Shown: in pieces, positions 1-27,922 of the stretch
Position numbering within the stretch: the stretch's first letter is position 1
Layout of the letters: every line of letters begins with the position of its first letter
Source of the DNA: a virus
Taxonomy: Duplodnaviria > Heunggongvirae > Uroviricota > Caudoviricetes
Reading direction: 5' to 3' (one strand)
Length of the DNA: 29,158 bases
IMG/VR virus record: IMGVR_UViG_2731957841_000003
Made by a program: the position numbers and the translations under genes
Notes under the pieces: model-generated
Databases searched by the model: none
Told to the model about the DNA's origin: nothing
Seen by the model: only the letters and a program-made list of their open reading frames with translations

Positions 1-79
1 GTCATAGAACTTCCATTATTCTCCTGAAGATAATAATCGCCAAATAAACCAATACTCAGCTTTACAATATACTAACTAA

Positions 80-113
80 CCGCAGAACGTTATTTCATAC
101 AACGTTTCTGCGG
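80..113 (-). terminator. Stem-loop (12-bp stem with one bulge) just downstream of the tail fibre gene; possible terminator or structured element
   Basis: Inverted repeat ccgcagaacgtt / aacgtttctgcgg with a 9-nt loop, about 200 nt downstream of the stf stop. No clean U-tract follows on either strand. Confidence 0.3.
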
Positions 114-311
114 CATATCACAAAACGATTACTCCATAACAGGGACAGCAGGCCACTCAATATCAGGTGCAGTTGATGTATCAACACGGTTCAGCAACAC
201 CCGATACTTCTTCCAGGCTTCCAGCAACGAGTTTTCTTCCTCCGTTGCGATCTCCAGCTCAACAACAGTCTGAACGTACCAGGAACAGCCTCCTTCAGGG
301 CTTGAAGGATA

Positions 312-3300
312 TCAATGTTCGCTTCCTGTTAACTGCCCGACAAGTGCAACCAGTTCGCTTACCTGATTTTCCAGAGTGCTGATCCGGGTGCCTGCTGTTG
401 CCATATTTTTACGTAGCGTTATGTTTTCCTCTTCCAGCGCGGTAACGCGACCATCTGTTTCACGGGCGACCTGAACAAGTAACCCCGTCACGGCGGAGTA
501 GTCAACATTAAGATAGCGAGTTTCTTCGCGTAGCTCGTTGCCGTCAACGGTCGGACCTTGCAACTCTTCACCATAATGAGTAAACGATCCCACAGCTTCA
601 GGTATCGCCTCCATTACTTCCTGTGCAATAACGCCAGCATAAGGCATTCCGTTTTCCTTGAGCGTGTAGGTGTACCCGTTCATTTTACGGATTGCTTTCG
701 TCGCGTCGCTGATAACGCGAATATCGTCTTTAAGGTCGCGGTCTGATGACTGATTCAGCGTTGTGCAATTAATAGCGCCATTTACATCAAACAACTGGCC
801 TGCTGATGTTTTTTGCGCATAAAACAGATACGCAGCAGACGTTCCAACCTCAAAAACGTTTTGTCGATCACTTGATCCCCATACTTTTGCGGCAAATGAT
901 AGTTCTGTATTACCTAAGTTCTGTAAAACAAAACGATTGCCAGTCCCTGATTGCTTTGTAAGGGTTAAATCAACAGTTGAGTTAACCTCATCCTTGTTGA
1001 TAGTGAGCGCCTGCGCTTTAGCCCCGTTAACAGCACCTGTTTTGAGTTGAACCGCGCCGTCATTACCATTTAGCAGTATCTCAGCTCCGCTAAAGAAATT
1101 TTTTAGCGACAGCATCTTACTTACGCCGACTGATGAACCCAACGCCCACGCGAGAGAATTACCGGTGCTATCAAACCCACGTACAAAGCAATCCATTTTG
1201 CTATAGTCTGACGTGCTTCCAAGGACATCAATCCGCCCTCCGCCAGATTTTAACGGGTTAGATGTGGTTAATGACCTGACAGCAAGATCGGTGGATGAAT
1301 TTAGATCGTCTACTGTTAGTAATTTCTTCCATTCCTGCATCGTTCCGTTTTCAACTGTTCTTCCCCAAAAACCGGAATTGCGGCCTCCGAACTGCACAGC
1401 ATAATTTTTACTAAATTGAACATGAATGCCGCCAAGAACCATAGAACCTGCCGGGCCGTTTGTACTGCCTGCGATTGGTCTAAATTTGTCGACGTTATCA
1501 GTATGCTGAGAGTTCCAGTCATGACCTGTTAATGTTGCGATTCCTGAGTTAGCTGTAATTAACCCAGACGCTTTAAGATTTTGCACATCAATTCTGTCGT
1601 TTGCGAAATTATATGCAATTGCGTTACTAACGCTTCCGGCATCATCATAATCGCGTTTCTGAATAAACCAGTCGCCAGCATTAGCAATGAGAGTATAAGT
1701 AGGCGTGTTAGCCGGGCGATCTGTTTCATTAAATCTTATTGCTGGGTTAGCGCTCCTTATTTGTAAAGGTTTTTCAACCGTTGATTTCAGTATCGCACTA
1801 TCTACAATTAAATTACCTTCTGAGTTAAGGTTTAGATATTTTGAAGCACCAGTTGAACCATCGTATGTAAACCTTATTGTTAATTGACCTGGCTCATTTG
1901 ATAAAGTCTCAACATACATATCAGCACCAAGACGCACAGTGCTGTCAGTTGCTAACAGTCTTGTATGGAGAATACCACTAGATGTGTATGTATTGGTCGA
2001 ATCACTATATCTATCAAGAAATAGACTGTTAAGTTGAGGGCTATTACTCCTGCCTAATCCAAGATTCGTTCTGGCACCATCAATAGTTGCCGCACCAGTG
2101 CCACCATGAGAAACATCAAGCGGTATCCATTCTTTTTGTGTATCGCTGTAACAACCCCATGATGAGGCGGTTAAACCCAGGCGCATGGATTTATCATGGT
2201 TATATAACCATGTTTCGCTATTCAATTGGTCAAGACGGTCCACTTCATTTTTGCGAGCGTGGCGTGTCCATTGCGGGCCTATTGTCGGACTCCAGCGATA
2301 GGTATAAAGCGAGCGAGTAGTCCATCCCTGAAATACACCTGTATACGCTGGTGTTCCATCTACCTGACTAATAAAACCAGTAAGATTACCTTCGCCTGAT
2401 GCAATAGACGGAAAACCTGTTGCGGAAGCAAAAATGCGCATAAAGCCAATATAACCGGATGGATCACCGGAAATATCAGGACAATTGCGCGGTGATGATC
2501 CCAAACCGATGTTAGCACCAACAATACCCTGAGCATGGTTGCGATAATTAAGTGCGTCCGCCGCAGATTTCGCCGCGTTTGTTTCACTGGATTTAGCATT
2601 AGTTTCGCTGGCTTTAGCGTTGGTTTCGCTGCTCTTTGCTGCTGCCTCGCTATTTTTCGCGTTGGTTTCTGATTTTTTGGCTGCTGTCGCGGAGTTTGCC
2701 GATGCAGTTTGTGAGTCTGCTGCCGCCTGTGCGCTGTTATCCGCATTCGTCTCAGACGTTTTTGCGGCCTTCGCGGAATTTCCTGCCGCCGTTGCCGAGG
2801 AAGCTGCACTACTGGCACTTGATGATGCGTTCGTTTCTGATGATTTCGCTGCCTCTTTTGAGGCCGCCGCATCCCGGGCTGAGGTGGCAGCTTCTGACGC
2901 TTTCGTGGTCGCGGTGGATGCAGAAGTGGCGGCTGATTGTTGTGACGCTGCCGCATTCGTTTCTGACGTTTTCGCCGCACCGGCACTGGTGGCCGCCGCG
3001 CTTTTTGAGGACTCTGCAGCGGCAGCACTTTTTGATGCTTCAGTAGCCTTTGTTGATGCCGTTCCTGCGCTGGAAGACGCTGACTGAGCCGACGTCGCGG
3101 CCTGCCCGGCTGATGTGCTGGCTGCACGTGCTGAGCCTGCAGCATCAGTCGCATGGGTTGCCGCCTCACGGGCTGATGTACCGGCATCGCTGGCTGACTT
3201 CTTCGCGGCTGCCGTGTTCTGTGCCACTGCGGACGCGTTACGCGCCACCTCTTCCACCATCAGTTCAAAGCGGCGCAGTGCCTCCGGACGGGCATCATCC

Positions 3301-3485
3301 TCCGTCATAGCACCGAGAAAATCATTCAGCGTACCCGGTTGTGAGTCTTCATACACGGTGATGGTCCCGGCATGCGATGGCGGGAACCATGTTATCCAGT
3401 GACGAGAAATACGTGTTCTGCTTACCGTTATCCGTTGTCTGTGTGCGGGGAGTTCTGGCTTTCGGTGCCAGCATCTGAGCCACAC
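312..3485 (-). CDS. stf: Side tail fibre protein (lambda Stf-like) with Ala/Ser/Thr-rich repetitive shaft and C-terminal intramolecular-chaperone-like domain; extreme N-terminus is chimeric
   Basis: 1057-aa ORF. From about residue 34 (FPPSHAGTITVYEDSQPGTLNDF...) it matches my recollection of lambda Stf; the first ~33 codons overlap gene I in another frame. Long KTSETNA-type repeats. C-terminal ~150 aa resemble the self-cleaving chaperone domain of endosialidase/L-shaped tail fibres (recollection). Confidence 0.85.
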   Translation of the reverse strand: MWLRCWHRKPELPAHRQRITVSRTRISRHWITWFPPSHAGTITVYEDSQPGTLNDFLGAMTEDDARPEALRRFELMVEEVARNASAVAQNTAAAKKSASDAGTSAREAATHATDAAGSARAASTSAGQAATSAQSASSSAGTASTKATEASKSAAAAESSKSAAATSAGAAKTSETNAAASQQSAATSASTATTKASEAATSARDAAASKEAAKSSETNASSSASSAASSATAAGNSAKAAKTSETNADNSAQAAADSQTASANSATAAKKSETNAKNSEAAAKSSETNAKASETNAKSSETNAAKSAADALNYRNHAQGIVGANIGLGSSPRNCPDISGDPSGYIGFMRIFASATGFPSIASGEGNLTGFISQVDGTPAYTGVFQGWTTRSLYTYRWSPTIGPQWTRHARKNEVDRLDQLNSETWLYNHDKSMRLGLTASSWGCYSDTQKEWIPLDVSHGGTGAATIDGARTNLGLGRSNSPQLNSLFLDRYSDSTNTYTSSGILHTRLLATDSTVRLGADMYVETLSNEPGQLTIRFTYDGSTGASKYLNLNSEGNLIVDSAILKSTVEKPLQIRSANPAIRFNETDRPANTPTYTLIANAGDWFIQKRDYDDAGSVSNAIAYNFANDRIDVQNLKASGLITANSGIATLTGHDWNSQHTDNVDKFRPIAGSTNGPAGSMVLGGIHVQFSKNYAVQFGGRNSGFWGRTVENGTMQEWKKLLTVDDLNSSTDLAVRSLTTSNPLKSGGGRIDVLGSTSDYSKMDCFVRGFDSTGNSLAWALGSSVGVSKMLSLKNFFSGAEILLNGNDGAVQLKTGAVNGAKAQALTINKDEVNSTVDLTLTKQSGTGNRFVLQNLGNTELSFAAKVWGSSDRQNVFEVGTSAAYLFYAQKTSAGQLFDVNGAINCTTLNQSSDRDLKDDIRVISDATKAIRKMNGYTYTLKENGMPYAGVIAQEVMEAIPEAVGSFTHYGEELQGPTVDGNELREETRYLNVDYSAVTGLLVQVARETDGRVTALEEENITLRKNMATAGTRISTLENQVSELVALVGQLTGSEH
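2560..3200 (-). repeat. Imperfect tandem coding repeats inside the tail fibre shaft (SETNA/KSAA-type units)
   Basis: Recurring DNA units such as gcgttggtttc[g/t]ctg / tttagc... on the plus strand, matching the repeated protein motifs ...KTSETNA...KSSETNA... Confidence 0.6.
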
Positions 3486-3909
3486 CGCCCAGGATCATAC
3501 TGGCCCCTGCCGCATACATGCCCGATACAGCCGCGGTACCCAGCCAGCCCACAGGGTTCCACCATGCCACCGCAATCAGCGCCGCACCCAGCACTGCCTG
3601 AAAAACACCGCCACTTTTAGCTCCCGCCAGACGCGGCACAATGTGGATCACGGCACCATTTGCCAGCGGCTCATTAAGACGGGCAGATAATTCATTTTCT
3701 CCTGCATCACGCCCGACAATGCGCACCTGATACCAGCCGTCGCTCAGTTTCTGACGAAACGCCGGGAGCTGTGTGGCCAGTGCGCGGATGGCTTCAGCCC
3801 CCGTTTTCACACGAAGGTCGATGCGGCGGCCAAATCGTTGTAAATCCCCGTAAAGGCAGATGCGTGCCATTCCCGGTGACGCCAGAGGGAGTGTGTGCGT
3901 CGCTGCCAT
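3349..3909 (-). CDS. I: Tail tip assembly protein I-like, C-terminus replaced after ...SSLDNMV (deletion junction)
   Basis: 186-aa ORF starting MAATHTLPLASPGMARICLYGDLQRFGRR..., which I recognise as lambda gpI. Lambda gpI is 223 aa by memory; here the frame diverges after DNMV and stops 11 codons later. Confidence 0.8.
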   Translation of the reverse strand: MAATHTLPLASPGMARICLYGDLQRFGRRIDLRVKTGAEAIRALATQLPAFRQKLSDGWYQVRIVGRDAGENELSARLNEPLANGAVIHIVPRLAGAKSGGVFQAVLGAALIAVAWWNPVGWLGTAAVSGMYAAGASMILGGVAQMLAPKARTPRTQTTDNGKQNTYFSSLDNMVPAIACRDHHRV

Positions 3910-4549
3910 TTGTCGGTGTACCTCTCTCGTTTACTCAGTTGTTCAGGAATATGGTGCAGCAGCTCACCGTCACCACAGTAAATGGCGGCATGATTCGGCA
4001 CCGATGAACCAAAACAGCACAGCAGCACGTCGCCAGGCTGCGCCTCTGTCAGTGGGACACGGTAAAAACCCGTTGCCTCCATATTGTCAAGATAGAGATT
4101 CTGGCCGTGACGCCACCAGTCATCCCCGCGATGAAAATCCGGCATCTCAATTCCCGCCAGATGGTAAGCGTCCCGGAACAGCGTGTAACAGTCCGTCACC
4201 CCGTGCTCAAAGCGCCGCCCGGTGAGATGCGGCACACAGAGGAATTTATGAATCGCCCCCGGCAGACCAGCCACCACGGCAAATCACTCTGCACCTGCAG
4301 CCGCCGGTCGGCCTCACTCAGCCAGGGCAGACCACCGGGGTGGCTGTGGACCAGCGCCACAATCTCTCCCTGCATTTCTGCCTGCAGCCAGTCTTCCGGC
4401 GACATACGGAAATACGCCTCCGGCTCACCGGAGATATTCACGCAGGGGAAATATCTTTCCCCCTCCGGCGTGCTTACCACGAAGCCGCACGACTCCGCTG
4501 GCGCACATCGCCGGGCGTGCGCCAGAATCGCTGATTCTGTCTGTGTCAT
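3807..4549 (-). pseudogene. K: Tail assembly protein K-like (MPN/JAMM HSHPGG motif plus NlpC/P60-like C-terminal part), split by a frameshift into ORFs 4196..4549 and 3807..4277
   Basis: N-terminal ORF ends ...DLPWWLVCRG then out-of-frame tail; C-terminal ORF continues ...IHKFLCVPHLTGRRFEHGVTDCYTLFRD... in another frame. The frame switch maps to the C5 run at 4256..4260. Confidence 0.7.
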
Positions 4550-4554
4550 GGGAT

Positions 4555-5253
4555 TTACTGCGAAAGTTTGTTAATGGAAAGGAAGCCGCCAAAGTTGCCG
4601 ACGTTATTGCGAAACTTACAGCCGCTCAGGCATTTGCTGCATTTATCCTTCGTGATATCGGACGTCGGCTGGTCATATTCATCCGCGACTGCCGGACCGT
4701 GATAACCGCACTCATCACCGCGATAGGTCCAGGTGCAGGTGTTGGCCAGCATGATACGTCCCGGAAAAACAGCGCCGTCCGTTTCCGTCGGTGTGGAGAG
4801 CACAAAGGAGGCACTGACCGCGCTCAGTTCGCTGCACTGCTCGATGCGCCAGCGGCTGATCACCTCCTGCTCCGGATCGGCGTCACTGTTTCCGTTGACG
4901 AAGTTCACCGCATCCAGAAAACGGGCGTAAACCTTACGCCGGACCACCGTTCCGCCGACCAGACTCTGCAGATCTTCCGCCATCCCGGTGATCATGCCGT
5001 GCAGGTTAGAGACCGTCAGTGTCGGACGGGCAGCACTGCCCTTGCCGTTCATCTCAAATCCACTCCCCTGAATGGGATAGGCCTGATACTGCCGACTCTG
5101 CCAGGTGACCGACTCACCTTTTTCGTTCTGCTCATTACAGAAAAAGTAGCGATCCCCGCCTACCTCGGTCAGGTCGATTTCCCAGAGCACCACGCTGGCC
5201 GACTGCTCCGCACGAATGCATTCATTCAGCGTTTCCTGTTGTATGTCCTGCAT
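4555..5253 (-). CDS. L: Minor tail protein L
   Basis: 232-aa ORF; sequence and length match my recollection of lambda gpL; position between M and K. Confidence 0.85.
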   Translation of the reverse strand: MQDIQQETLNECIRAEQSASVVLWEIDLTEVGGDRYFFCNEQNEKGESVTWQSRQYQAYPIQGSGFEMNGKGSAARPTLTVSNLHGMITGMAEDLQSLVGGTVVRRKVYARFLDAVNFVNGNSDADPEQEVISRWRIEQCSELSAVSASFVLSTPTETDGAVFPGRIMLANTCTWTYRGDECGYHGPAVADEYDQPTSDITKDKCSKCLSGCKFRNNVGNFGGFLSINKLSQ

Positions 5254-5591
5254 CAGATTACCACTTCGTCAAACTGACACGAAAAATCGGTATAGGTGAT
5301 ATGTTCTGTCGCTGACCACGTTCGACACACCACTCTGATTTTTCTGTTAATACCCGGCGGGCGCCAAAAAAAAGATTTATAGCCTTCATGCCGGGCTAAA
5401 AATTTTTCAAATGAATCACGTTCATTCGCCTCAACTTTGAAATCACAGGTGAAAACGCGCAGAGAATGATTAAGTCCATTTGGACTTCGTTGCTCATAAC
5501 CATCGCCAAATCTTACAGTTTTTATCGATGGTTTATTTTCTGTTTTCATTCCATCCTCTGGTAACCAGTGAAATTCTTCCGTATTAGCCAC
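5253..5591 (-). CDS. M: Minor tail protein M
   Basis: 112-aa ORF with ...VRFGDGYEQRSPNGLN... resembling lambda gpM; start overlaps the tape measure stop and its stop overlaps the L start. Confidence 0.8.
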   Translation of the reverse strand: MANTEEFHWLPEDGMKTENKPSIKTVRFGDGYEQRSPNGLNHSLRVFTCDFKVEANERDSFEKFLARHEGYKSFFWRPPGINRKIRVVCRTWSATEHITYTDFSCQFDEVVI

Positions 5592-8500
5592 TTAACATTC
5601 CCCCATCACGTCGCATATTTAACAGATTGCCCTGCACCCGCTGATCAACCATCCCCATAAGTGCTTTTATTGCCTGAGGGCCAATCTCTCCATTCTGGCC
5701 GTCATTTTGAATAGTGATTTGGTATACAGGGGCATAGGTAATATCTCCGCCTCCATTACCACTTTTACTATTAATAGCTCTGACACCAAGAGAACCATCG
5801 GAAGTTCGTGTTAATGGCATAATGGCTTCCGGACCAGCCTCACCAAAAACACCAGCCCCTCTTGCAAAAGCAAAAAATTGCGGGGAGTCATAAATACCGT
5901 TCGAATACGTGTTCAATGACGGAGACTCATAAACACCGCCCTTTGCATTCGGAATAAATTTACTAATAGCACTCCCGATAGTTCCTAAAATCCCCCCAGA
6001 AGAACTGTTACTAATGCTGTCGAAAATCCCAGTAATTGAAGCCTTTAATGCTATTCGACTAAGATCCGAAATCACGGAAGTAGCGAAAGAACGAAAATTT
6101 GCCTTGCCTGTCGTGACAAAATCACCCAGCGCATCGGTCATTCCATCAAACATCTGAGTCGTGGTTGATTTTATCTGCTCACTGATATCCTTAGTGTCAT
6201 CCAGCCAGTTATTGAATCCCTGGGAGGCACCACTAACCCAGTCTCCTGCCTGAATATCGAGCTGCTCGTTTTTCTGTCTGACAATTTCTTTTTCTCGTTC
6301 CAGAGCATCATTCAGAGCCTGCATTTTCTCCTGAAAAACATGATTTGACATCCCACGGGATTTATCTGCATAGTCACGTTCAAGTTGCAGACGCTGATTG
6401 TTATATTCACGTTCAATCCGCAGTAATTCCTGCTGGCGTTGCTGATTTTTATCGCCAACCCCATAACCAGCAATCTGAATATCATACCCCTGTTGACGAT
6501 TATCAATCGAAGCCTGCAATGAATCACGCCATGCAGCTATTTCGGCGGATTCCTTGATTAGCCTGTTATTTTTTTCAATCGCAACATTTTTCTCCATCAA
6601 CGCGGTTATTTCTTCCCGGTGTAAGAGAAGCGATTTCTGATCCTGGGTTAATTTCGATGACGGTCGTGACTCCAGGTCGGCAATCTGCTGACGCCACTTA
6701 ACCAGTTCCTGTTCAGAGGAACTTAATTTAACGGTTAATTCAGTTTGTGAACTTAGTAACGCATTCTGTTGATTCAGATGATCAATCATTCGTTGGGCAG
6801 CATCATCCGAATAACCTTTCGCCTTTGGTTGCTTTGGATCTTTATAACGTTCATTTATTTGAGCGATAAAATTATTATATTCTTCCTTTGAATACTGACT
6901 CTTTAGCTTTTCCAGTTTTGCAAGTTCACTAGCTCTCTGCTGCTCCCGGGTCTGATATTGTTTTGAAAAGGCATCTGCTCTCTGTCTGAGTTCAATTCCT
7001 TCCTGTTGTCGCTTGTTGTAATCGTTTATTGATGAATTTAGGACGTCCTGAGCAATTTTTTCTGCTTGAAGTACGCCCAATTGCTGCTTTAATCGTGCCA
7101 GCCTTTTATTTTGAGCTCCGCCATCTCCAATGCCACCTAACCCGAAAACTCCGGGTCGGGTATTTTTTCTATTTCATCAATTTGACGGAGAACATCTGAG
7201 ATTTTTTGATCAAGGGAGGCCTCACGGCCAATATCCAGCATGGAATCCCATGCCCATTTTGCGGAGTCTGCGACAGCTTTCCATGCAGTCTCAAGATAAC
7301 CAAGATTTTCTTTAATCTGGTTGGTGCGCTGGATCATTGAGGATGAGTATGCTTCTGTCGCAATGCGGGCGGCCTCCTGCTGGTTCCCTTCATCCTGTAG
7401 CGCCTTAATCTGGTTATAAGTCGCAATTGTCAGAAAATGGTACTGATCATTAAGTTTTGATATGGCACTGACAGGATCCTTTGCAATTTCATTGAAGTCA
7501 TTAACCAGTTGTTCGGTTGATATTCCTGTTACTTCGCTCGTTTTTACTATCGCTGTCGTCACTTGCTCCAGCGAACTGCTCGCTACCTTTCCCGAACGCA
7601 CAAGCTGGTTTAATACTGCCGCCGCAGCGCCAGTTGTCGAATCAGCCGCATTCCCGGCACGTTGAGCTATATCGGCCAATTGCCCGCTGGTTGTCCCCAA
7701 CTGATTTCCGGTAAGAATAAGAGATTTATTAAATTCGTCCTGCTCCTGAGAGCCTTTATAGTAAGCCAGCCCTAAGACGCCAACGGCTGCTGCGGCCAGG
7801 GTAAAAGGATTAATTAATCCCAGCACATAAGAACCAACACCTTTGATCGCCGGGCCAATCCCACCGAACATATCTTTTAGCTGGCCGCCCTGCTGCATTA
7901 ACACCATAAAAGGCGACTGACCAGTGGACAACCCAACAACAATATCCGTCATTTGTGCAGGCAACATGCGCATAGCAAAAGCCGTTTGTTTTGCCGACAT
8001 TCCGGTTTTGCTTAATTGAGATTGAGTAACCTCAAGCTCACTCCGCATAGCACGAAGTTTTCCAGAAAGTTCCTCATACATTTCAGGAGAGAGCATCCCC
8101 TTAGCTTTTGCTTCATTGAGCTGTTTCTGTTGTTCTACCAGACGATTAAAAGCAGTTCCGACAGGGTCAAGTTGAGCAATCAGACGTTGCAAAGCAGCAA
8201 CCTGTTCATCATGCGCTTTTGCTGCTTCTCGCTCTGCCTGAGCCTCTCCGGTAAGCTCTCGCCGTGTTTCCTGTATTTTTCGGCTATAATTCTCAAACTG
8301 AGAACCATTTATTTTCCCGGATGCAAACGCAGCATTAAGTTCATCCTGCTGTTGTTCAAGATTTCTTAGCGCCGCAGCCAGAGGGTCGATCTTGTCCAGC
8401 ATTCTTTGAAAGGCCTGAGCCTGCGCTTCCTGCTGGGCGGCAGCAAGTTTTCCGGCCTTCTCGGCTTCTCTCTGCGCTTGCGCAACCCCGCTCAATTCCT

Positions 8501-8816
8501 CTGTGGTTTCATTAAGTTTACGGACAAGAAATTCATATTCTTCTTTATCAATAAGCCCTTTATCGAAAAATTTCTTTAATTCAGAATAGCGTCGACCGAC
8601 AGTATCAATTGCGGCACCAACTGGATCAATAGCTGCTTTTAATTTTGCGAGCGCGTTCTTCTCATCTTCTGTTGCCTTAGTCACTTTCCCTGCGCTATTT
8701 GCAGCAGTTTCCCCGGCCTGCGTCATTTTGACTAATGAGGAGGTCAGATTGTCAGCATTATTTTTTGCTCCAGTGCTATCAATAATTATTGCGAGACGCG
8801 AGGTTTGCTCTGCCAT
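5584..8816 (-). pseudogene. H: Tail tape measure protein, interrupted by a frameshift (ORFs 7137..8816 and 5584..7080)
   Basis: Two long coiled-coil-rich ORFs in different frames, both open across 7140..7173. The region contains a T6/A6 homopolymer (7163..7168). Combined length of about 1060 aa and position upstream of M/L/K/I fit a tape measure protein. Confidence 0.75.
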
Positions 8817-8979
8817 TTATTAAAACTCCAGACAACAAAAAGCCCACCGAAGTGGGTTTCAGGCGACATAATAGTAGATATAGCGATTACGAGGCCACGC
8901 AATGCTTTTCTCCAGGAGCATCATCGATTTAATTAAAGACACCATCACATCTCTGTAACAGAGTGTACGTAATTAACAA

Positions 8980-9578
8980 CTACACACACTGATCCTGAAA
9001 ATACTGGTCATCCAGTGCAAAGATCACTGCTTCAAACTCATCGCGCTCAATCAATACCGGATGAGTGGCTAAATATTCATTTATCTCTGTCAGAGATAAA
9101 GGCAAAGGCACCCCGGTCATTCCAGCATAACGTCGGGCACGGGATATTACCGAATAGGCGTACAACAATTCCTTAAGCACCGGGTCTATTTCTGGTTCCG
9201 GTATCGGTGGCAACCTGAGTTTTTCTCGCTTCCATCTTGCCTTTTCCCCCCTTTCTCCCCCGAACTCCGATAACCACCGCTGGGCGGCTATGGCTTTTTT
9301 ATCGTATCCTGCTTCTGCTGCTCTTTACCCTGGGCGATGCTGGCTGCTTCTGCAAGGATCTGCCAGTACAACTCTGGATTCTGCTTAAGCAGCGCGATCC
9401 CTCGTTCTGGCGTATATTCCAGTGCAACCTCAGCACCATTAACCAGTTCACCAACCCCTTTCCAGTCTTTCAGCAGATAACGAGCAGCATTATCAATGAG
9501 TAAATCATCAACAGAATCTACCTCGGAAACCTTTGAAATATCAAACTCCTTCGTTCCGACGTGCAAACTGGCATCCAT
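8980..9578 (-). CDS. GT: Tail assembly chaperone GT-like fusion produced by a predicted -1 ribosomal frameshift at 9294..9300
   Basis: The -1 frame is open from 9324 down to 8980 and joins the G frame at the heptamer (mRNA ...AUA AAA AAG CCA UAG; -1 reading gives KKAIAAQRWLSEFGG...PPIPEPEIDPV...). Conserved G/GT arrangement upstream of tape measure genes. Confidence 0.55.
9288..9578 (-). CDS. G: Tail assembly chaperone, G-like (0-frame product)
   Basis: 96-aa ORF immediately upstream of the tape measure gene; ends ...DTIKKP* with an A_AAA_AAG slippery heptamer in frame 6 codons before the stop. Confidence 0.6.
   Translation of the reverse strand: MDASLHVGTKEFDISKVSEVDSVDDLLIDNAARYLLKDWKGVGELVNGAEVALEYTPERGIALLKQNPELYWQILAEAASIAQGKEQQKQDTIKKP
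9294..9300 (-). other. Putative programmed -1 frameshift slippery heptamer A_AAA_AAG
   Basis: Plus-strand CTTTTTT is AAAAAAG on the minus strand, in the X_XXY_YYZ register of the G ORF, with the -1 frame open downstream. Confidence 0.55.
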
Positions 9579-9598
9579 TTTCTCAATGTGACGACGGA

Positions 9599-9796
9599 TT
9601 AATGCATTACGGGAGCGATACTGATCGTTATCGCTGCTTCACCTTTCGCTCTGCCCTTACGGATGGCCGCATAAAAATCTGTCATTGCTTCCCGATTTTC
9701 TTTCAGTCGGTTCAGATCAACATCCAGAACGTCAGCGATTTGTTGTGCAGTCATCCGGCACGCTGCCAGAGACTCGACTTTCGAATACGGAATCAT
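9599..9796 (-). CDS. Small hypothetical protein with HTH-like segment (possible remnant of a packaging/terminase small subunit gene)
   Basis: 65-aa ORF (…MTAQQIADVLDVDLNRLKE…). Its 5' end overlaps the 3' end of the upstream ORF by 65 nt. Weak call. Confidence 0.25.
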   Translation of the reverse strand: MIPYSKVESLAACRMTAQQIADVLDVDLNRLKENREAMTDFYAAIRKGRAKGEAAITISIAPVMH

Positions 9797-10664
9797 TTGT
9801 CACCCCCATTGATATGCAGGGTGTCTTCTTCCTGTATTTTTCGTGAAGGATTTTTACTGCAGCGTTGTTCCAGGTGACCTGATGGTGAATGCGTTTATGG
9901 CTGGCACCCATCAGTGAAATTTTTACGCACGACGGCGCATACATGACGGAGTAAAAACTTTTAACGTAGGTTCCGGAATCCAGATACAGCTCGGTCATTC
10001 CGCCGCTGTTTTTCTGCGTCTGTTTCTGCCCTAACTGGACAGCACCGATCGTCATAAACAATTCACCACAGCGACCGAGATTCGTGTACGTATTCACATC
10101 CTCGTTAATGCGCCCCATGAATGAGAACGGTCGATCAACCGAACAGATAAAGCTGTTCATTGCCTTGCGTTTCACCCACGAAGCATGGCCGCCATTGTCA
10201 CCAAGAAAATCCCCGCCCTGCGACATAGCGATGGAAAGAGCAGGTATTGATTCGTAGTACGCCAGCATTTCAGAAAGGATCGCATCCAGTTTCCTTATCG
10301 GAAAATAGGCCTGGTCATAGTTGCGATCCACCCGAAACTGGAACTCGTGATAATCATCATCGAGCTGAATGAAGTATTTACACCCGACCAGTTTTGCCAG
10401 GTCGAAACAGGCATTACGGGCGTAAAAAATTGAGCGGCGGTCACAGAAATTATCGGCTTCGTCAAAACGACTGGCGATATCGGTTTTGGAAAACACCAGC
10501 ACCTGTTCACCAAATTCAGCCATGTACTGATGCCGTGTCTTATCTTCATCATCAACAACGATAAAAATTTTCCCGGTATAGCCAGCACGACGCAACGTCC
10601 GGTAAGTCAGAACTTTGTCTGGTCGCCCGTGAGTCAGAATAAAGGCGCAAAAATCATCACGCAT
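9732..10664 (-). CDS. Hypothetical protein, unknown function (possible GT-A-like fold: ...IFIVVDDED... and ...QLDDDY...)
   Basis: ORF listed as 317 aa; likely start is the ATG at 10664 (MRDDFCAF...) preceded by GGAGGAGGAGG, 2 nt after the ParB-like stop. No motif secure enough for a functional call. Confidence 0.5.
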   Translation of the reverse strand: MRDDFCAFILTHGRPDKVLTYRTLRRAGYTGKIFIVVDDEDKTRHQYMAEFGEQVLVFSKTDIASRFDEADNFCDRRSIFYARNACFDLAKLVGCKYFIQLDDDYHEFQFRVDRNYDQAYFPIRKLDAILSEMLAYYESIPALSIAMSQGGDFLGDNGGHASWVKRKAMNSFICSVDRPFSFMGRINEDVNTYTNLGRCGELFMTIGAVQLGQKQTQKNSGGMTELYLDSGTYVKSFYSVMYAPSCVKISLMGASHKRIHHQVTWNNAAVKILHEKYRKKTPCISMGVTNDSVFESRVSGSVPDDCTTNR

Positions 10665-11448
10665 ATTCCTCCTCCTCACCACCATGCATGATCTCCACCA
10701 TGCGCTGCGTCATCCGGACAAATCCATTTTCAATAGCCTGCTGATAATCAATGATCACCAGCGCCGACTCCTCGAAAAAACACTGAATTTCAGCGGGGGC
10801 GTGAGCGTAATAGTCCGCAATTCTGCTGAAATTAAACACCGTGTGACGTTCTGCCGCACACAGGAGGAATTTCTCAATATCAGGCTCAAGGGACGCCGAA
10901 CGTATCCGGCTGATCAGCTCCTGAGTTTTCGTATCGTCGTACAGTTCACTGATATCCGGTTTACCGCCCGACGGCTCATAAACAGGCGTATCAATTTTCG
11001 TCGTATACGGCTCCTCCTCATTTCCTGTACCGGGCAAAACATCCGTCAACAGTTCATCAATTTCTGTCGGGATGAAGCCTGTCAGGGAGACATCAAAATC
11101 AGCATTGATTAGGTCCGACAGCTCCATCCGCAACAGATCTTCATCCCAGCCAGCATTCATCGGCAGGCGATTATCTGCCAGGCGGTACGCCTTTTTCTGC
11201 TCATCCGTCAGGCCAGACAGAACAATGACCGGAACAGAATCCATTTTGAGCATTTCAGCCGCCATAACACGACCGTGACCCGCAATAATTTCGCCCTTTT
11301 CGTCAATCAGCACCGGATTAGTCCAGCCGAATTGCTTAATACTTTCTACCAGTTGTGCCACCTGCTCAGGGCTGTGCGTCCTGGCGTTGTGCGCATACGG
11401 TGACAATTCTTGTAATGGGCGATAGACTATCTTTAATTTCTCGCTCAT
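10657..11448 (-). CDS. ParB-like nuclease domain protein (ParB/Srx N-terminal domain)
   Basis: N-terminus ...LQELSPYAHNARTHSPEQVAQLVESIKQFGWTNPVLIDEKGEIIAGHGRVMAA... fits the ParB N-terminal domain signature; acidic C-terminus. Confidence 0.7.
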   Translation of the reverse strand: MSEKLKIVYRPLQELSPYAHNARTHSPEQVAQLVESIKQFGWTNPVLIDEKGEIIAGHGRVMAAEMLKMDSVPVIVLSGLTDEQKKAYRLADNRLPMNAGWDEDLLRMELSDLINADFDVSLTGFIPTEIDELLTDVLPGTGNEEEPYTTKIDTPVYEPSGGKPDISELYDDTKTQELISRIRSASLEPDIEKFLLCAAERHTVFNFSRIADYYAHAPAEIQCFFEESALVIIDYQQAIENGFVRMTQRMVEIMHGGEEEEYA

Positions 11449-11585
11449 ACAGCCTTGCTTTATGAATAAAACGCACCCCAGCAGCCAGTGCTACTGGGGG
11501 CGGAGGTGTTGCTGGTAAAGTTAGGTATTGGATCAATGAGTGAGTCAACATAATATTAAACTCACAATTATAAATCAGCCATATA

Positions 11586-13043
11586 TTAGGAGCGCCAAAA
11601 AAAACCTGAAAACAATATAATAACAGGATAAATTTCAAGGCGACCAAGAATCATAGCTATGCACATTAAATATTTTGCAATGTCATTAAGCACTCCGAAT
11701 GACGATGCAGTAGCCCCAAAACCTAATCCCATATTATTAATACATGCAGCCACTGTTGCAAATGATGTAAGAAAATCATATCCCATACCATTTAACACCA
11801 GTATAAAAAACACCGTAAAGAGAGTATAAAGAAAAAAGAAACTCCATACAGACCTCATTACACGATCTGTAACTATCTTCCCTCCTACATTTACACTCAA
11901 CAACGCTCTGGGATGAGAAAGCTGATTTATCTCGTGTTTGCTTTGTTTGAAAAGTATAAGAAATCGAAGTGACTTAATTCCACCACAAGTTGAACCTATA
12001 CATCCCCCAAAGAAACTTGACAACAGCAAAAACACTATCGTGTGCGTGGGCCAGCTTGCATAATCCTGCGTAGCTAAACCATTATCAGTGAGCATGGAGC
12101 TGGCAAGAAAAAACGAATGAATAAAACTTCCATGCAAGTCATACATACCTATATGCCAGACCTGGAAAGAGGTAACAATGATCACCCCTAAGGCTATTAA
12201 CAGAAAGAAACGAAGTTCAATATCTCTGATTAAAGGTTTTATCGTTTTCCTGCTAATAACAATATACCAAAGAGTGAAGTTGAAAGCCGATAGCAGGGAA
12301 AAAGAACCAGCCACCAGCTCAACCAAATAGTTATTAAAATATCCGATACTCTCGCTATGAGTTGAGAAACCACCAAGCGAAACTGTGGAAATCCCGTGAC
12401 AAATAGCATCAAACAAAGGCATTCCTGCAAGTCTATAACAGACAATACAAGCAATACCTAATAAAGAATAAGTTATCCACAGTGTCCGTGACGTATCGGC
12501 CAGGCGGGGAGTGAGTTTGTCATCCTTAAATGGCCCCGGCATTTCTGACTGATAAAGCTTTGCACCACCAATACCCAATAATGGCAATACAGCAACCGCC
12601 AGAACAATAACTCCTAAACCACCTATAAAATTTAACTGTGACCGATAGTACAAATATGCCCGAGGTAATGAACTAACATCATCAATTACAGTTGCTCCTG
12701 TTGTTGTTATTCCAGAAATCCCTTCAAACAGAGCATCAATGAACGTTAAATTAAGTTCTGAGTCAATCCATAAAGGGAATGCACTAATAACAGAAAACAA
12801 AATCCAAAACATTACAATTATAATAAACCCATCACGGGTACGTAATTGAATGCCAGATTTCTTAGTTGTATACCACGCTCCGCCACCAATACAAAAAAAT
12901 ATAACGAAAGTTATAAAGAAAACGAACAGGCTTTTTTCTTTATAAAACAATGCTACAACCATTGGTGGCAACATTGAAAGACTATAGAGCCAAACCAGGA
13001 ACCCACACATATGAGTAACAACTCTTACATGAGATGTATTCAT
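11586..13043 (-). CDS. trkG: Potassium uptake protein TrkG (Trk system membrane subunit), AT-rich prophage cargo
   Basis: 485 aa from MNTSHVRVVTHMCGFLVWLYSL...; polytopic hydrophobic protein; markedly AT-rich relative to flanking phage genes. K-12 Rac carries trkG (established). Confidence 0.9.
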   Translation of the reverse strand: MNTSHVRVVTHMCGFLVWLYSLSMLPPMVVALFYKEKSLFVFFITFVIFFCIGGGAWYTTKKSGIQLRTRDGFIIIVMFWILFSVISAFPLWIDSELNLTFIDALFEGISGITTTGATVIDDVSSLPRAYLYYRSQLNFIGGLGVIVLAVAVLPLLGIGGAKLYQSEMPGPFKDDKLTPRLADTSRTLWITYSLLGIACIVCYRLAGMPLFDAICHGISTVSLGGFSTHSESIGYFNNYLVELVAGSFSLLSAFNFTLWYIVISRKTIKPLIRDIELRFFLLIALGVIIVTSFQVWHIGMYDLHGSFIHSFFLASSMLTDNGLATQDYASWPTHTIVFLLLSSFFGGCIGSTCGGIKSLRFLILFKQSKHEINQLSHPRALLSVNVGGKIVTDRVMRSVWSFFFLYTLFTVFFILVLNGMGYDFLTSFATVAACINNMGLGFGATASSFGVLNDIAKYLMCIAMILGRLEIYPVIILFSGFFWRS

Positions 13044-13180
13044 ATCTAAATATTCTTTCAATTATAACCACCTTGCTGCAATATTATGATTATACTGTAT
13101 AAAATTTAACTCCTCTTAGATCTTACTTCACTGTTCCTTATGAAACAATCATCAAAATGAATCATATTGTAGTTAAGATT

Positions 13181-13645
13181 TTACTTTAAACACTGTTCGG
13201 TTATGTATTGCTGAGCACCTTCAAGTTGGGCCTGCATCATTACCAGTCGTTCCCGGAGGGTGAAATAATCCCGTTCAGCGGTGTCTGCCAGTCGGGGGGA
13301 GGCTGCATTATCCACGCCGGAGGCGGTGGTGGCTTCACGCACTGACTGACAGACTGCTTTGATGTGCAACCGACGACGACCAGCGGCAACATCATCACGC
13401 AGAGCATCATTTTCAGCTTTCGCATCAGCTAACTCCTTCGTGTATTTTGCATCGAGCGCAGCAACATCACGCTGACGCATCTGCATGTCAGTAATTGCCG
13501 CGTTCGCCAGCTTCAGTTCTCTGGCATTTTTGTCGCGCTGCTCTTTGTAGGCGGTGGCGTTATCACGGTAATGATTAACAGCCCATGACAGGCAGACGAT
13601 GATGCAGATAACCAGAGCATAAATAATCGCGGCGACTCTGCTCAC
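13181..13645 (-). CDS. Rz: Spanin inner-membrane subunit Rz (GTG start overlapping endolysin stop)
   Basis: (V/M)[29 protein letters not shown]... closely matches lambda Rz by recollection; GTGA start/stop overlap with the endolysin gene. Confidence 0.8.
13240..13425 (-). CDS. Rz1: Spanin outer-membrane lipoprotein Rz1, embedded in the +1 frame of Rz
   Basis: 61-aa [27 protein letters not shown]...PPPPP...; lipobox LVVVGC and proline-rich region; entirely inside Rz. Confidence 0.8.
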
Positions 13646-19566: not shown

Positions 19567-20568
19567 TTAGTAATCTGCGTGTTTCGCACTTTTCAGAAAT
19601 GCTTTCATATTTTCATTAGGTCGCTCAATTTCGAAGTTACTTCCATATAACTCTTGTAATTTTGGCCATAACTTACTTAATAACCCTCTCCTGCGATAAA
19701 ATGGATGTATCCAAACGGTAGATAGGTACGGAGAATTTGCATTTGAATTGTTTATTGTGACCAGCCCAACTAAACATTGTCGATAACCACTATTATCCAT
19801 TGATTGTATTTCTTCGACGAATGGATACGCGATTACATCAGTCCAACCATGATCGGTTGTATCCCATTGCATTCCGTCATGACATTCCTTCGACTGATAG
19901 CGGCGTAAAGCTACACACGCGAGCTTTTGCCAATCTGGAGAATTAATTGTGATCTCTTCATCGTATGACGCGCCTATTGGAGCGGGTATTGGTCTGATTA
20001 ATCCAGCATGGCATTCATCATAGAACTTCATGTTTCCCTCAGAAACGTTGTGTACGTTGGGTTGCTCCATGTGTGCGCCATTCAAAAATAGCTCTGATAG
20101 TAGTGTATCTACACTGTAATCTTTATTGATTATTGTCGGCTTAGAGTTTTTCTTATTAAGGCCGCGAGTAACGATTTTTTGATCAATGTTAACAACATGG
20201 AATAATCCGTCGGGGAGGCTAGCGAACCACGATGGGGCATCGGACCAGAATAGCATGCCTTTTGTACTTCTTAAGAGTTTAATTAAGTTAATACAAGCTT
20301 CTTCACTAGTCTTGCCGTTGATGCGAAGTATGTTAGGACTAAAGTAATATTCATCCATATCAGGGAATGCAGCTTCGCAAAACTCCTGTACATAATTTAG
20401 CACCTGGATTCTACAGAGATCATCATAGCTGGTAATAACTAAGGGGGTATCTTCATTACTATTATGATTATCAATAATGCAATCTATAGCGAGACTTACT
20501 GCTTTGCGTATCACTTCAGTTGAATCTAACGACTCTAAAAATTTTGTCTTTCGTGTGCGAATATCCAT
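19567..20568 (-). CDS. Hypothetical 333-aa protein with C-terminal GNAT-like acetyltransferase motif (second gene of AT-rich cargo cassette)
   Basis: C-terminal ...LSTVWIHPFYRRRGLLSKLWPKLQEL... resembles GNAT motif A (beta4-alpha3, R-x-x-G); N-terminal ~250 aa unassigned; AT-rich codon usage; 15-bp gap to upstream gene. Confidence 0.5.
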   Translation of the reverse strand: MDIRTRKTKFLESLDSTEVIRKAVSLAIDCIIDNHNSNEDTPLVITSYDDLCRIQVLNYVQEFCEAAFPDMDEYYFSPNILRINGKTSEEACINLIKLLRSTKGMLFWSDAPSWFASLPDGLFHVVNIDQKIVTRGLNKKNSKPTIINKDYSVDTLLSELFLNGAHMEQPNVHNVSEGNMKFYDECHAGLIRPIPAPIGASYDEEITINSPDWQKLACVALRRYQSKECHDGMQWDTTDHGWTDVIAYPFVEEIQSMDNSGYRQCLVGLVTINNSNANSPYLSTVWIHPFYRRRGLLSKLWPKLQELYGSNFEIERPNENMKAFLKSAKHADY

Positions 20569-20583
20569 GTATGACCTGCGCTA

Positions 20584-21606
20584 TTAAAATTCATGAATGA
20601 ACGGTTTGTCATCTGGTTGCAAAATGGTGGTTTTATTCGTTGCTACATTTAAACTGTTGTAGAGCATAATTGCCAGGTTCGATGCATTTTCAATCAGCGT
20701 TTCAAGATCCTGGTCTGTAATCACTACGAGGTTCCCTTCTTTATCCTTTCCACCACGATGCACTAAGTGATTTCGATTGAGGGTTGCCAATTCAATAGCT
20801 TCTATCGGACAGTCTTTTTGTACTTTTATATCGAATGTAGCTTCATAGCGGTCGATTACCTTTTTAGTGCTATGCCAGCTTGCACTGATCAAGTGTTCCT
20901 TGATTGACCTGATTAGCTCTCCCCTAATTTTCTCGATGGGTTCACCCTTGAAAGGCAACGCAGCAATATCTTTGCTTACTTTAAATTCAGTCTTACCTTT
21001 TTCTATACAATTGGCTATGTAGACATCATCTTTCTCTATAGAATTAATGAATAGCTCAACATAAAGCGTTTCCAAAGCTGTAATAACATTCGTGTAGAGC
21101 AAACTAAGCAAGTGGTTTTTTTGCTGTTGTTCAGTTTTATCTTTTGCAAGTTTTTTTATTTTATCGATATTATCAATGAATTTTAAATACGGATTACCGG
21201 AAGACGTTACAGCGTCGTAGATATCATCATCGTACCAATCATCTATATTATTTGAGTTTCCAGACCAGTCAAAACATTGTGTTTGTAATTCATCTACTAA
21301 TTCCTCAATATACTCAGATTTAACATATTGACCGAAGATGGATTGTAGTTCTTCGCTCGCATCATACGGCCCGCCATATATGTAAGCATAGCCACCTTCT
21401 CTACTTTCATACGGACAAGCATTTGCCGGATCTTCAAAGTTTTCAAAGAACCAGTTTTTCATTACTTCGAGTTGATCTTTTTTGCTTATGTATTTTAAAG
21501 ATTTTAGTGGAACTTTCTTTCCATTAACCTCGAAAACAATTTTCACGATGTAACGCTCCCTTGTATCAATTGCGCAACTATTATACCACAGCGAAATACA
21601 GGGCAT
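20584..21606 (-). CDS. Hypothetical 340-aa protein with C-terminal R-x4-H (HEPN-like) motif (first gene of AT-rich cargo cassette)
   Basis: ORF listed as 363 aa; preferred start is the ATG at 21606 (MPCISLWYNS...) preceded by AAGGAGG. C-terminal ...ELATLNRNHLVHRGG... carries R-x4-H; strongly AT-rich. Confidence 0.5.
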   Translation of the reverse strand: MPCISLWYNSCAIDTRERYIVKIVFEVNGKKVPLKSLKYISKKDQLEVMKNWFFENFEDPANACPYESREGGYAYIYGGPYDASEELQSIFGQYVKSEYIEELVDELQTQCFDWSGNSNNIDDWYDDDIYDAVTSSGNPYLKFIDNIDKIKKLAKDKTEQQQKNHLLSLLYTNVITALETLYVELFINSIEKDDVYIANCIEKGKTEFKVSKDIAALPFKGEPIEKIRGELIRSIKEHLISASWHSTKKVIDRYEATFDIKVQKDCPIEAIELATLNRNHLVHRGGKDKEGNLVVITDQDLETLIENASNLAIMLYNSLNVATNKTTILQPDDKPFIHEF

Positions 21607-21744
21607 AACCTGCCTCCTTAAACTAACATACCATGAGCCAGCAATGTCCGCTATTGGCACAAAGCGGACAACCACGCTAGCTCTCCCCTGTGCCAGAAAA
21701 ATGTCAATTTACATATGAACTAATGCTCTTTGATCTAGTAACGT

Positions 21745-22176: not shown

Positions 22177-22938
22177 TCACTTTTCCGACACAATACGACT
22201 GGAGGAATCGACAATCTGTCGGACAATATCCCGGTGCTTGTTCAGCTCCCGCAGCGCGGCGCAGACTCGCTCCCACTTCTGGACATGATTTTTCGCCCGA
22301 CGCAGTTCGCGGTTTGCCATATGCAGCGATGGTAAAACTAGGTCATCCGCTTGCGTTTCAGTAAACGATGGCAGCGACTGCACAATGTCCGCCACAGTTT
22401 CTGTTTTAATATCTTCCTGTGTTGCCGCTTCCTGTACTGGTAACGCAACACCGGCTGGCTGAGGAAAGGCTTTACCATCAGTTTCCGCTACCGATGCAGC
22501 TTTCGGCTCTGCTGGTAAATTATCGCCCGGCATGCAGTAACGAAATTTACCGTTCTGGTTTACGCGAATCAGGCGTCCTTTGCTGATTGCCATTGCCAGC
22601 GTTGAAGCAACTTTGCGGGATGTTGTACCGAACAGCGTAGCCAGTTCATCCGCCGTTTGTGGTCCGCGTTGTTCAATCGTCGCGGTTAAATCGCACTCTG
22701 AGATTTTCACTACAGTTGCCGTGGTGGTTTCTTCCGGCAGTTCTGCCTGCATTGGCTGTTCCTGCTGAACGTTGTTATCAGCCACACGCCAGGTGTACGC
22801 GCTTTTATCAACGAAACCAGCTTTTTTCAGTTCCCATAGTTCGTTCAGCACTTCTTCACGACTGATATCAAGTCGCGCAGCAAGTTCTATGGATGTGGCT
22901 TTTCCCATTGCTTTCAGTGCGTCAAAAACAGTCTCCAT
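22177..22938 (-). CDS. Hypothetical protein with two winged-helix-like segments, downstream of the DnaC-like gene
   Basis: Likely start ATG at 22938 ([43 protein letters not shown]...) preceded by GGGAGG; second similar segment [32 protein letters not shown]. Confidence 0.5.
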
Positions 22939-22960
22939 AAAAATTTCCTCCCGGTAAAAA

Positions 22961-23707
22961 TTACTTCTCAATTCCTGGCTGGACGACATTCGGACGCCAG
23001 CTCTCCCAGTTAAAATTCACCCATCGCCCGCCGTTCATGGTCATGCGATCCATAATCCGCTCGCCGAGCAATGTTTTCATGGCCTCATAGTTCAGGTTTG
23101 TCAGCATCCCCACGCTGCGCATCGACGCTGTCCGGCGATCAACAATCTGGTGCAGCACCACCTGCTCGTTTTTCGTCTCGCGCTGAATGCCAATTTCATC
23201 AAGAACCAGCAGATCCACTTCGCATAGTTCCCGCAAAAATTTTTCGCCTGACTGCCCATCGTCATAGCTGGCGTGCAGGGCACTCATAACATCAGCCACG
23301 GTAACCACAATCACTGTCTGAACGTCTTTCAGCAGGCGATTCCCGATAGCTGCCGCTAAGTGGTTCTTCCCGGTACCAGGTTTTCCGCTGAACGCAAAAT
23401 TTGTACACCCGGTCATCAGTTCATCAGCGATGGATTTCGCCTGACTCAACGCGTATCGCTGCGCTTCGTTCTGCACCTGGTAATTCGAAAACGAGCATTT
23501 GCGGTGCAATGGCTGGATGCCAGAGCGATTCAGAATTTTTTCCACCCGCAACTGACGATTCTGACGGTTGATCTCCTCACAACGTTTCTGGCCTTCGGAA
23601 AGTTGCCACTCGCGCCACTCCGCTACCGTCTTGAATGGCGCGGTTACATGTGACGGGGCCAGTCTGCGGATACGTTCAAGAACGTCGCCTGTCGCAATAT
23701 TTTTCAT
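22961..23707 (-). CDS. ydaV: DnaC/IstB-like replication helicase loader (YdaV-like)
   Basis: Walker [16 protein letters not shown] and Walker [10 protein letters not shown]; 248 aa. Confidence 0.85.
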
Positions 23708-23713
23708 GGTCAG

Positions 23714-24475
23714 TTACCCCCTGAAGCCTGGCGGGATCGCACTATCCGGTAACGAGACGGTGTTAACCTGTCGGAGTAACGTCTCAGGTCGAACACCTTT
23801 CGGCGCGAACAAGCCCTGGTATTCATTGGCGATGCTGTGTCGAATCACCTGCTCAGGTGAAAAACCCTGCTGGCGGAATTTTTCCAGCTCCCGTATCGCC
23901 CCGTTAGCGCCCTGCTCCGTTCGAATCGGTTTTCGCAATGCCTGGCGAAATTCAACCCACTCACGCCAAAGCGAGACAGAAATCCAGTTCGGCAAAGCAA
24001 TATCCAGAGGGTCAAACTTTTTGACACCTCGATTCCCCCGGGGGGGATTTAGGGGGGGATCTGTTTTTAGATCTTTATCTGTATCTTTATTAGTTGCCTT
24101 TGTGTTGACATCATGTTCAAACACCACTTCAACATCTGTTTGAACACCTGTTAAATTTCTCTCTTGTTTTGTTTGAACATCTGCTTCCTTTCTGCTTCTT
24201 CTGGCCTGAACAGATGCTTTTCCTGCGGCTGATTTTTTGGTTAATTTTTCCCTGACTGATGCCAGATCTTCCTCAATCCGAAGATGCACCCATTCCTCGC
24301 CGTTATCGCAAAAAAACTCCTGCAAGGATGGTTCAACATCAGCCCATCGCTCGTTAGTCAGACGGGCAATTTTTGCCAGCCTGTTTTTAGGTATTGGCTT
24401 TCCTGTTTGCCAGTAATTGAACATCAGCAACAAATACGCACCATGCTCCTCTGCTGAAGGGTAATCGTGTTTCAC
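23714..24475 (-). pseudogene. ydaU: DUF1376 replication protein (YdaU-like), 5'-truncated at a deletion junction
   Basis: ORF begins with GTG at 24475 ((M)[24 protein letters not shown]...) and an in-frame stop lies 2 codons upstream, so the usual N-terminal ~25-30 residues of this family are absent. K-12 YdaU is 285 aa by memory versus 253 here. Confidence 0.6.
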
Positions 24476-24476
24476 A

Positions 24477-26373: not shown

Positions 26374-27175
26374 GCAACCACCAATCGCAAAAGCCGATCT
26401 GCAAAAAACTCAGGGAAACCGTGCACCAGCAGCAATTAAAAATAACGACGTGATTAGTTTTATTAACCAGCCATCAATGAAAGAGCAACTGGCAGCAGCT
26501 CTTCCACGCCATATGACGGCTGAACGTATGATCCGTATCGCCACCACAGAAATTCGTAAAGTTCCGGCGTTAGGAAACTGTGACACTATGAGTTTTGTCA
26601 GTGCAATCGTACAGTGTTCACAGCTCGGACTTGAGCCCGGTAGCGCCCTCGGTCATGCATATTTACTGCCTTTTGGTAATAAAAACGAAAAGAGCGGTAA
26701 AAAAAACGTTCAGCTAATCATTGGCTATCGCGGCATGATTGATCTGGCTCGCCGTTCAGGTCAAATCGCCAGCCTGTCAGCCCGTGTTGTCCGTGAAGGT
26801 GACGAGTTTAATTTCGAATTTGGCCTTGATGAAAAGTTAATACACCGCCCAGGAGAAAACGAAGATGCCCCTGTTACCCACGTCTATGCTGTCGCAAGAC
26901 TGAAAGACGGAGGTACTCAGTTTGAAGTTATGACGCGCAAACAGATTGAGCTGGTGCGCAGCCAGAGTAAAGCTGGTAATAACGGGCCGTGGGTAACTCA
27001 CTGGGAAGAAATGGCAAAGAAAACGGCTATTCGTCGCCTGTTCAAATATCTGCCCGTATCAATTGAGATCCAGCGTGCAGTATCAATGGATGAAAAGGAA
27101 CCACTGACAATCGATCCTGCAGATTCCTCTGTATTAACCGGGGAATACAGTGTAATCGATAATTCAGAGGAATAA
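26366..27175 (+). CDS. recT: Recombinase RecT (single-strand annealing protein)
   Basis: 269 aa from [27 protein letters not shown]...; matches my recollection of K-12 RecT; canonical position after recE. Confidence 0.9.
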
Positions 27176-27230
27176 TTCAGCCTGGCGGTGTAATGCACCG
27201 CCAACTTGAAATATTTTTATGAGAAAAATT

Positions 27231-27921: not shown

Positions 27922-27922
27922 T

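Follow-up and report, generated by a model that had tools for sequence, protein, structure and literature searches.

A deletion scar between tail assembly gene I and side tail fibre gene stf in a Rac-type prophage of Escherichia coli

In the window analysed here, a stretch of 29,158 nt of viral DNA (IMG/VR record IMGVR_UViG_2731957841_000003), tail assembly gene I runs directly into the body of the side tail fibre gene stf, in a different reading frame and with J and lom missing between them. This arrangement raises the questions of whether the join is a genuine deletion, how many events produced it, and whether the fibre gene left behind could still be of any use.

The breakpoint between I and stf

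The features at the junction are as follows (window positions):

3385..3388, minus strand: deletion junction, placed by a BLAST segment overlap at 3382-3388 and by three-way alignments in which the window was compared with I and stf of WI2 and with the four stf alleles nearest to its own.
3349..3909, minus strand: I', the truncated tail assembly gene, 186 codons (BLASTP, tblastn, and Pfam).
3385-3909, minus strand: native part of I', 175 codons (alignment to WI2 I).
3352-3384, minus strand: 11 out-of-frame, stf-derived codons of I', PAIACRDHHRV (frame comparison).
3349-3351, minus strand: TGA stop codon of I' (ORF listing).
3349..3356, minus strand: GTGTATGA, containing a stf-frame GTG (3356-3354) that overlaps the I' stop; the start of the gene callers' 1014-aa product (start inspection).
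312..3386, minus strand: 'stf, the side tail fibre gene without its 5' end, corresponding to residues 67-1090 of an intact protein of 1090 aa (BLASTP, tblastn, and Pfam).

The gpI homology was mapped by tblastn with the 215-aa I protein of WI2 to the minus strand at 3909..3385, where WI2 residues 1-175 are matched with 100% amino acid identity. By BLASTP, the ORF at 3349-3909 aligns with residues 1-183 of lambda gpI (75% identity, E 8e-99), and the alignment breaks off exactly at ...SSLDNMV (residue 175 of the query, residue 183 of the 223 in lambda). Stf homology sets in at 3386-3388 on the same strand and extends down to 315, in a frame one base off that of I; WI2 Stf residues 67-1090 map to 3386..315 with 97.7% identity by tblastn, and the BLASTP alignment of the stf-frame ORF with lambda orf-401 (Stf) begins at FPPSHAGTITVYEDS, corresponding to lambda F67, and shows 84% identity over 218 residues. 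The preliminary description had placed the end of gpI homology after SSLDNMV at about 3385 with Stf beginning right there in a different frame, and the ends of the BLASTP and tblastn alignments agree with it on both points. An 801-nt query across the junction, searched by megablast against phage and E. coli collections, was matched as two halves that overlap by only 5-7 nt. Pairwise alignment against lambda I and stf and against an intact Rac-like prophage thus located a breakpoint and gave no continuous ancestral gene.

The same description had read the locus as a deletion from I into stf that left J and lom missing, and the intact Rac-like prophage of E. coli WI2 (NZ_LT838200.1) bears this out, carrying exactly the expected genes between the two breakpoints. 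Window 3382-9639, with the tape measure gene, M, L, K, and I, is 99.3% identical to WI2 at the nucleotide level, and window 1-3388, with stf, is 97.8% identical; the corresponding WI2 segments lie 4,512 bp apart. These 4,512 bp comprise 123 nt of I (40 codons and the stop), a 60-nt spacer, J (3,399 nt, 1132 aa), a 66-nt spacer, lom (600 nt), a 64-nt spacer, and 200 nt of stf (66 codons plus 2 nt). The loss of the I 3' end, J, lom, and the beginning of stf was correctly foreseen, but the count of missing stf codons, put at about 60, is 66. WI2 also shares a flank with the window and related contigs, consisting of an Ea47-like gene and the sit operon (sitDCBA), and it alone of the two has full-length I (215 aa) and Stf (1090 aa) together with a 10-kb tail-tube, head, and terminase block. 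The I-J-lom-stf-tfa module of lambda resembles the window in gene order and in homology (75% for I', 84% for 'Stf) and differs from it in possessing J, lom, the last 40 residues of gpI, and residues 1-66 of Stf, none of which the window has. In tblastn searches of the whole 29-kb window with lambda and WI2 proteins, no homologue of J, Lom, V, G, or T was detected, so the hub gene J is indeed absent, as had been proposed.

Spread of the junction and its mode of formation

An error of assembly or sequencing, through a chimeric join or a collapsed repeat, could also give the appearance of an I'-'stf fusion, and the window does differ from other assemblies in the length of two homopolymers (C5/C6 at 4255-4260, T6/T7 at 7168), which are possible sequencing errors. 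However, the parental sequences share only 2-4 bp, leaving no repeat to collapse, and a 51-nt junction probe matched exactly in 17 of 18 independent contigs, which were drawn from NCBI, ENA, and Logan and include three NCBI assemblies and human-gut metagenome scaffolds. Among the carriers are GCA_958309085.1, GCA_958308775.1, GCA_903977555.1, and strain VL2732. Because the identical junction is present in these independently assembled contigs, from isolates and gut metagenomes alike, an artefact is excluded with near certainty. The exact 186-aa I' protein was found on eight contigs (Logan and ENA) and the exact 1014-aa 'Stf protein in 51 blocks of the searched collection, the carriers having been recovered only through exact-protein look-ups. 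The two halves are contiguous in 0 of 5,426 complete RefSeq E. coli genomes, and searches of JGI metagenome contigs and GTDB species-representative genomes with exact 43-nt and 24-nt junction patterns gave no match. The literature searched contains no description of the junction, and in GenBank its products are annotated only as hypothetical or partial proteins. We conclude that the I'-'stf join is a real deletion scar, the result of ordinary prophage decay.

The sequences at the join bear on how the deletion may have formed. ATGGTT had been proposed to lie on both sides, which did not hold up: lambda I reads AACATGGTTGCC and lambda stf reads GACGGTTTTCC (ACGGTT), and the sole stretch common to I-side and stf-side parents of the WI2 or lambda type is the 4-bp minus-strand GGTT. 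WI2 stf reads GAAGGGTTCCC at the breakpoint. Four stf alleles come nearest to that of the window (98.5-100% identity over 687 nt) and bear its CCATCGCATGCC signature, and all four have GAAGGCTTCCC (AAGGCTT); with these (GGC TTC) the overlap is TT only, 2 bp, and the crossover would then lie within TT at 3385-3386. Judged from these parents, the exact overlap would be either GGTT or, more probably, TT. Around it is an imperfect patch in which six of eight bases agree (GGTTGCCC on the I side, GGCTTCCC on the stf side). Because about 16% of random junctions would show an overlap of at least 2 bp by chance (P = 0.16) and about 1.6% one of at least 4 bp (P = 0.016), a microhomology-mediated mechanism appears plausible rather than established from the I'-'stf junction alone; for the element as a whole it is likewise plausible because the two other deletion junctions in the window have overlaps of 4 and 3 bp. 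WI2 is only a stand-in for the true parent, closer to the window on the I side than on the stf side, so the extent of microhomology (2 versus 4 bp) and the number of events are uncertain.

Two or more events could have led to the same arrangement, for example if J or lom had first been deleted, or an IS inserted, and another deletion had come afterwards. Such a history has precedents in this prophage family: secondary deletions are nested beside existing junctions in contigs L024, L025, L018/L019, and L005/L006, the ydaY/ynaK junction of K-12 Rac apparently arose from a second junction of the window by a 1.55-kb loss, and IS5 is inserted in K-12 Rac lomR. Yet neither an intermediate nor an IS remnant was found at the I'-'stf junction, and all 17 carriers have the same join, which makes a several-step origin improbable. 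Recombination by a Pin-type invertase was also considered as the cause and rejected. Pin-type systems are known to act at the C-terminal variable region of the fibre, not at codon 67, and in the comparison with K-12 Rac the homology of the window stops short of the pinR region.

The reading we favour, with a probability of roughly 0.92, is that one illegitimate deletion of about 4.5 kb joined I codon 175 to stf codon 67, one base off, and persists as a passive scar in a decaying Rac prophage. This event, homology-independent or dependent on very short homology, would have removed the C-terminal 40 residues of gpI, the whole of J (the central fibre and hub), lom, and the first 66 residues of Stf in a single step, plausibly by slipped mispairing or alternative end-joining at GGTT/TT. 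It would have left an I' that ends after 11 nonsense codons and a 'stf with no ribosome-binding site of its own.

The truncated genes at the join

In I' the N-terminal domain is intact (Lambda_tail_I, PF06805, 83.9 bits, profile positions 2-83 of 83), and the C-terminal region is incomplete: the alignment ends at lambda V183 (WI2 V175), beyond which 11 unrelated residues stand in place of the last 40. In lambda gpI a plug domain (residues 159-175) is followed by β-strands that thread gaps in the hub domains of gpJ, the region lodging in gpJ being residues ∼176-223 (PMC11101478). The segment lost from I' corresponds to lambda gpI residues 184-223. An I'-Stf fusion protein made by frameshifting was rejected on inspection of the join, where stf lies in the +1 frame relative to I and no slippery sequence or other recognisable recoding signal is present.

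The stf-frame ORF comprises 1057 codons (3485-312) and is open up to a GTG at 3485 only by way of I sequence in the wrong frame. The match of 'Stf to phage_tail_N (PF08400) covers only profile positions 65-134 of 134, residues 1-66 being absent, and the C-terminal S74 intramolecular chaperone is present (Peptidase_S74, PF13884, 56 bits, 1-57 of 58). Residues 1-94 of lambda Stf form a six-stranded sheet with a helix, twelve copies of which make a collar at the gpV/gpM junction (PMC12617516). 'Stf has thus lost most of the 94-residue N-terminal fold that docks the side fibres. The gene callers' 1014-aa product, read from the GTG at 3356, is by exact-protein look-up identical to KRR53375.1, 'hypothetical protein EC2732_10290 [Escherichia coli VL2732]'.

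The preliminary description held that the fibre body lacks a start and a ribosome-binding site of its own. This stands insofar as no start preceded by a Shine-Dalgarno sequence was found in the stf frame near the junction, GTG 3356 included. No promoter-like site was found at the junction either, including any that the fusion itself might have created. Because both are lacking, expression of 'stf is unlikely, and the sole conceivable route would be reinitiation at GTG 3356, which overlaps the I' stop.

Could the headless fibre gene nevertheless have acquired a new role? The stf-frame GTG lies 5 nt upstream of the I' stop (GTGTATGA), and translation coupled to that of I' would yield a 1014-aa truncated fibre, self-chaperoned through its S74 domain, that might act without a tail, perhaps as an adhesin or by masking a receptor. 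The start/stop overlap is present, the product is predicted by gene callers, and every carrier has an intact 'stf ORF, whereas some carriers show later damage to I', K, and the tape measure gene. Set against this are the lack of both a Shine-Dalgarno sequence and a promoter-like site, and contig L024, which is without the upstream I' and the junction yet keeps 'stf, so that coupling to I' is not conserved. The conservation itself is an ascertainment effect: the 3-kb ORF is open and 100% conserved among carriers, but the look-up was by exact Stf sequence and the carriers differ by <0.12% overall, so the conservation is uninformative on selection. Likewise, dN/dS is uninformative with 0-9 substitutions among carriers in 9.3 kb and, by design of the look-up, zero in stf. 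We regard this neo-functional role as very improbable. Taken more broadly, that 'stf is other than dead cargo, whether as a GTG-started, tail-independent, self-chaperoned receptor-binding protein or as a reservoir of fibre shaft and tip sequence for infecting lambdoid phages, has only a slim chance of being correct. Recombinants between lambda and K-12 Rac in stf/tfa have been shown experimentally (PMC3945230), and by analogy 'stf could credibly serve incoming lambdoid phages as a passive recombination substrate.

Erosion of the Rac-type element

Gene content and nucleotide identity show that the window belongs to a Rac-type cryptic prophage of E. coli, which it covers from a tfa remnant to intR. 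The Rac-like context suggested by the preliminary description was confirmed by blastn against K-12 Rac (NC_000913.3), with 98.1-99.3% identity over 7882-9640, 11195-13618, 22489-24457, and 24455-29158. The Rac gene set is present at 98-99% identity to K-12 (intR-xisR-ralR-recT-recE', ydaU/ydaV, rzpR-trkG-ynaK, and ydaY-ynaA), and the window ends inside intR (27923-29158), so that ttcA lies outside it. Besides I' and 'stf, it retains the following tail genes:

132..275, minus strand: tfa remnant, last 48 codons only (tblastn, lambda Tfa residues 147-194; a partial pseudogene in the WI2 annotation).
3807..4549, minus strand: gene K (JAB and NlpC/P60), two ORFs after a one-base loss, C5 versus C6, at 4255-4260 (Pfam Prok-JAB, NLPC_P60).
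4555..5253, minus strand: gene L, minor tail protein L, intact, 100% amino acid identity to WI2 (Pfam Phage_tail_L).
5253..5591, minus strand: gene M, minor tail protein, intact (Pfam Phage_min_tail, tblastn).
5584..8816, minus strand: tape measure gene, split by a one-base loss (T6 versus T7) near 7168 (Pfam TMP_2/TMP_4/Tape_meas_lam_C).

K is intact (247 aa) in most other junction carriers, and only contigs L002/L003 share its frameshift. Every other carrier examined has an unbroken tape measure ORF of 1077 aa, the window's frameshift recurring in none of the 11 contigs that cover the position (0/11). Nine other junction carriers have both the C6 and T7 runs (the latter at ∼7162-7168) and both ORFs intact. 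The two frameshifts would be either late mutations or homopolymer sequencing errors. L002/L003 differ from the window at further homopolymers, at 9251, 11604, 11837, 12899, and 12937, and some of these differences may likewise stem from sequencing errors.

Two other deletion junctions are present in the window. At 9636-9639 (GCTT overlap), the ydaY 5' end is joined to a point 10 kb away in WI2, with loss relative to WI2 of the tail tube, tail terminator, P22-like capsid, portal, and terminase genes. In K-12, the ydaY/ynaK junction has the same left breakpoint, including the C at 9640, and the arrangement there seems to have arisen from one like that of the window through the loss of another 1.55 kb (∼9641-11194, TTC overlap). 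At 24455-24457 (TGA overlap), ydaU' is joined to 'recE, with loss relative to K-12 Rac of 4.5 kb containing the recE 5' part, racC, ydaE, kilR, sieB, ydaF/G, racR, ydaS, and ydaT; the result is a Rac variant without the repressor/immunity region and without kilR. Because J, V, and the head, terminase, and tail-tube genes are absent, we infer from gene content that neither a tail nor a virion could be produced from the element.

Two gene pairs in the window were noted in passing. In a segment absent from K-12 Rac, adjacent minus-strand ORFs of 333 and 363 aa (19567-21675) have sub-threshold Pfam matches only (GNAT acetyltransferase; HEPN/RES N-terminal domain) and no match in a PADLOC scan; they may be an accessory or toxin-like pair. 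On the minus strand at 9732-11448, a TET-associated glycosyltransferase-like gene (PF20691, 317 aa) adjoins a gene for a 263-aa ParB_N protein that also matches the PADLOC 'Type II methyltransferase' model and is the full-length form of the truncated ynaK of K-12. The two may constitute a DNA-modification module.

Other carriers of the 'stf allele have undergone further deletions: window 3373-4049, with I' and the junction, is lost from L024, which keeps 'stf; 3454-3917, inside I', from L025; 7299-9201 and 9417-10602 from L018/L019; and 4058-25345 from L005/L006. Compared side by side, these nested deletions form a stepwise erosion series of the tail module. K-12 Rac, which is the same element in the same chromosomal neighbourhood, also lacks head genes and J through internal deletions, but by an independent J-removing event (ynaA'-'lomR, within the ynaA/tmpR'-'lomR-stfR region). 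It has lost the tape-measure 3' end, M, L, K, I, J, and the lom 5' end, followed by insertion of IS5 into lomR, and it keeps a full-length stfR with its N-terminus, tfaR, pinR, and the racR-ydaST-kilR-sieB genes that the window is without. The window, in contrast, keeps the tape measure gene, M, L, K, and I' and an S74-type fibre, and has lost the I 3' end, J, lom, and the stf 5' end. An independent I'-'lom fusion with J deleted is present in a lambdoid prophage remnant of E. coli H3 (NZ_CP028732.1, L012, locus 4650-5630); as in the window, the deletion begins in the 3' part of I and removes J, but it ends inside lom, the stf N-terminus is kept, and the prophage and locus are different (near yciE/ompW). 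The H3 fusion shows that a deletion has begun in the 3' part of I more than once.

Taken together, the I'-'stf junction is a new allele within a well-known phenomenon, the erosion of lambdoid prophages by deletion. No evidence points to a new function, and the significance of the junction beyond annotation and strain typing is small. The deletion explains automatic calls of a 1014-aa 'hypothetical protein' (KRR53375.1) and a 153/186-aa 'tail assembly protein', both of which should be flagged as pseudogene fragments. The junction is also a clean, unique marker of one E. coli Rac lineage, present in many draft and gut-metagenome assemblies and in none of the 5,426 complete genomes. Together with the nested deletions, it constitutes a small, well-resolved erosion series with 2-4-bp overlaps that could serve as a worked example of prophage decay.
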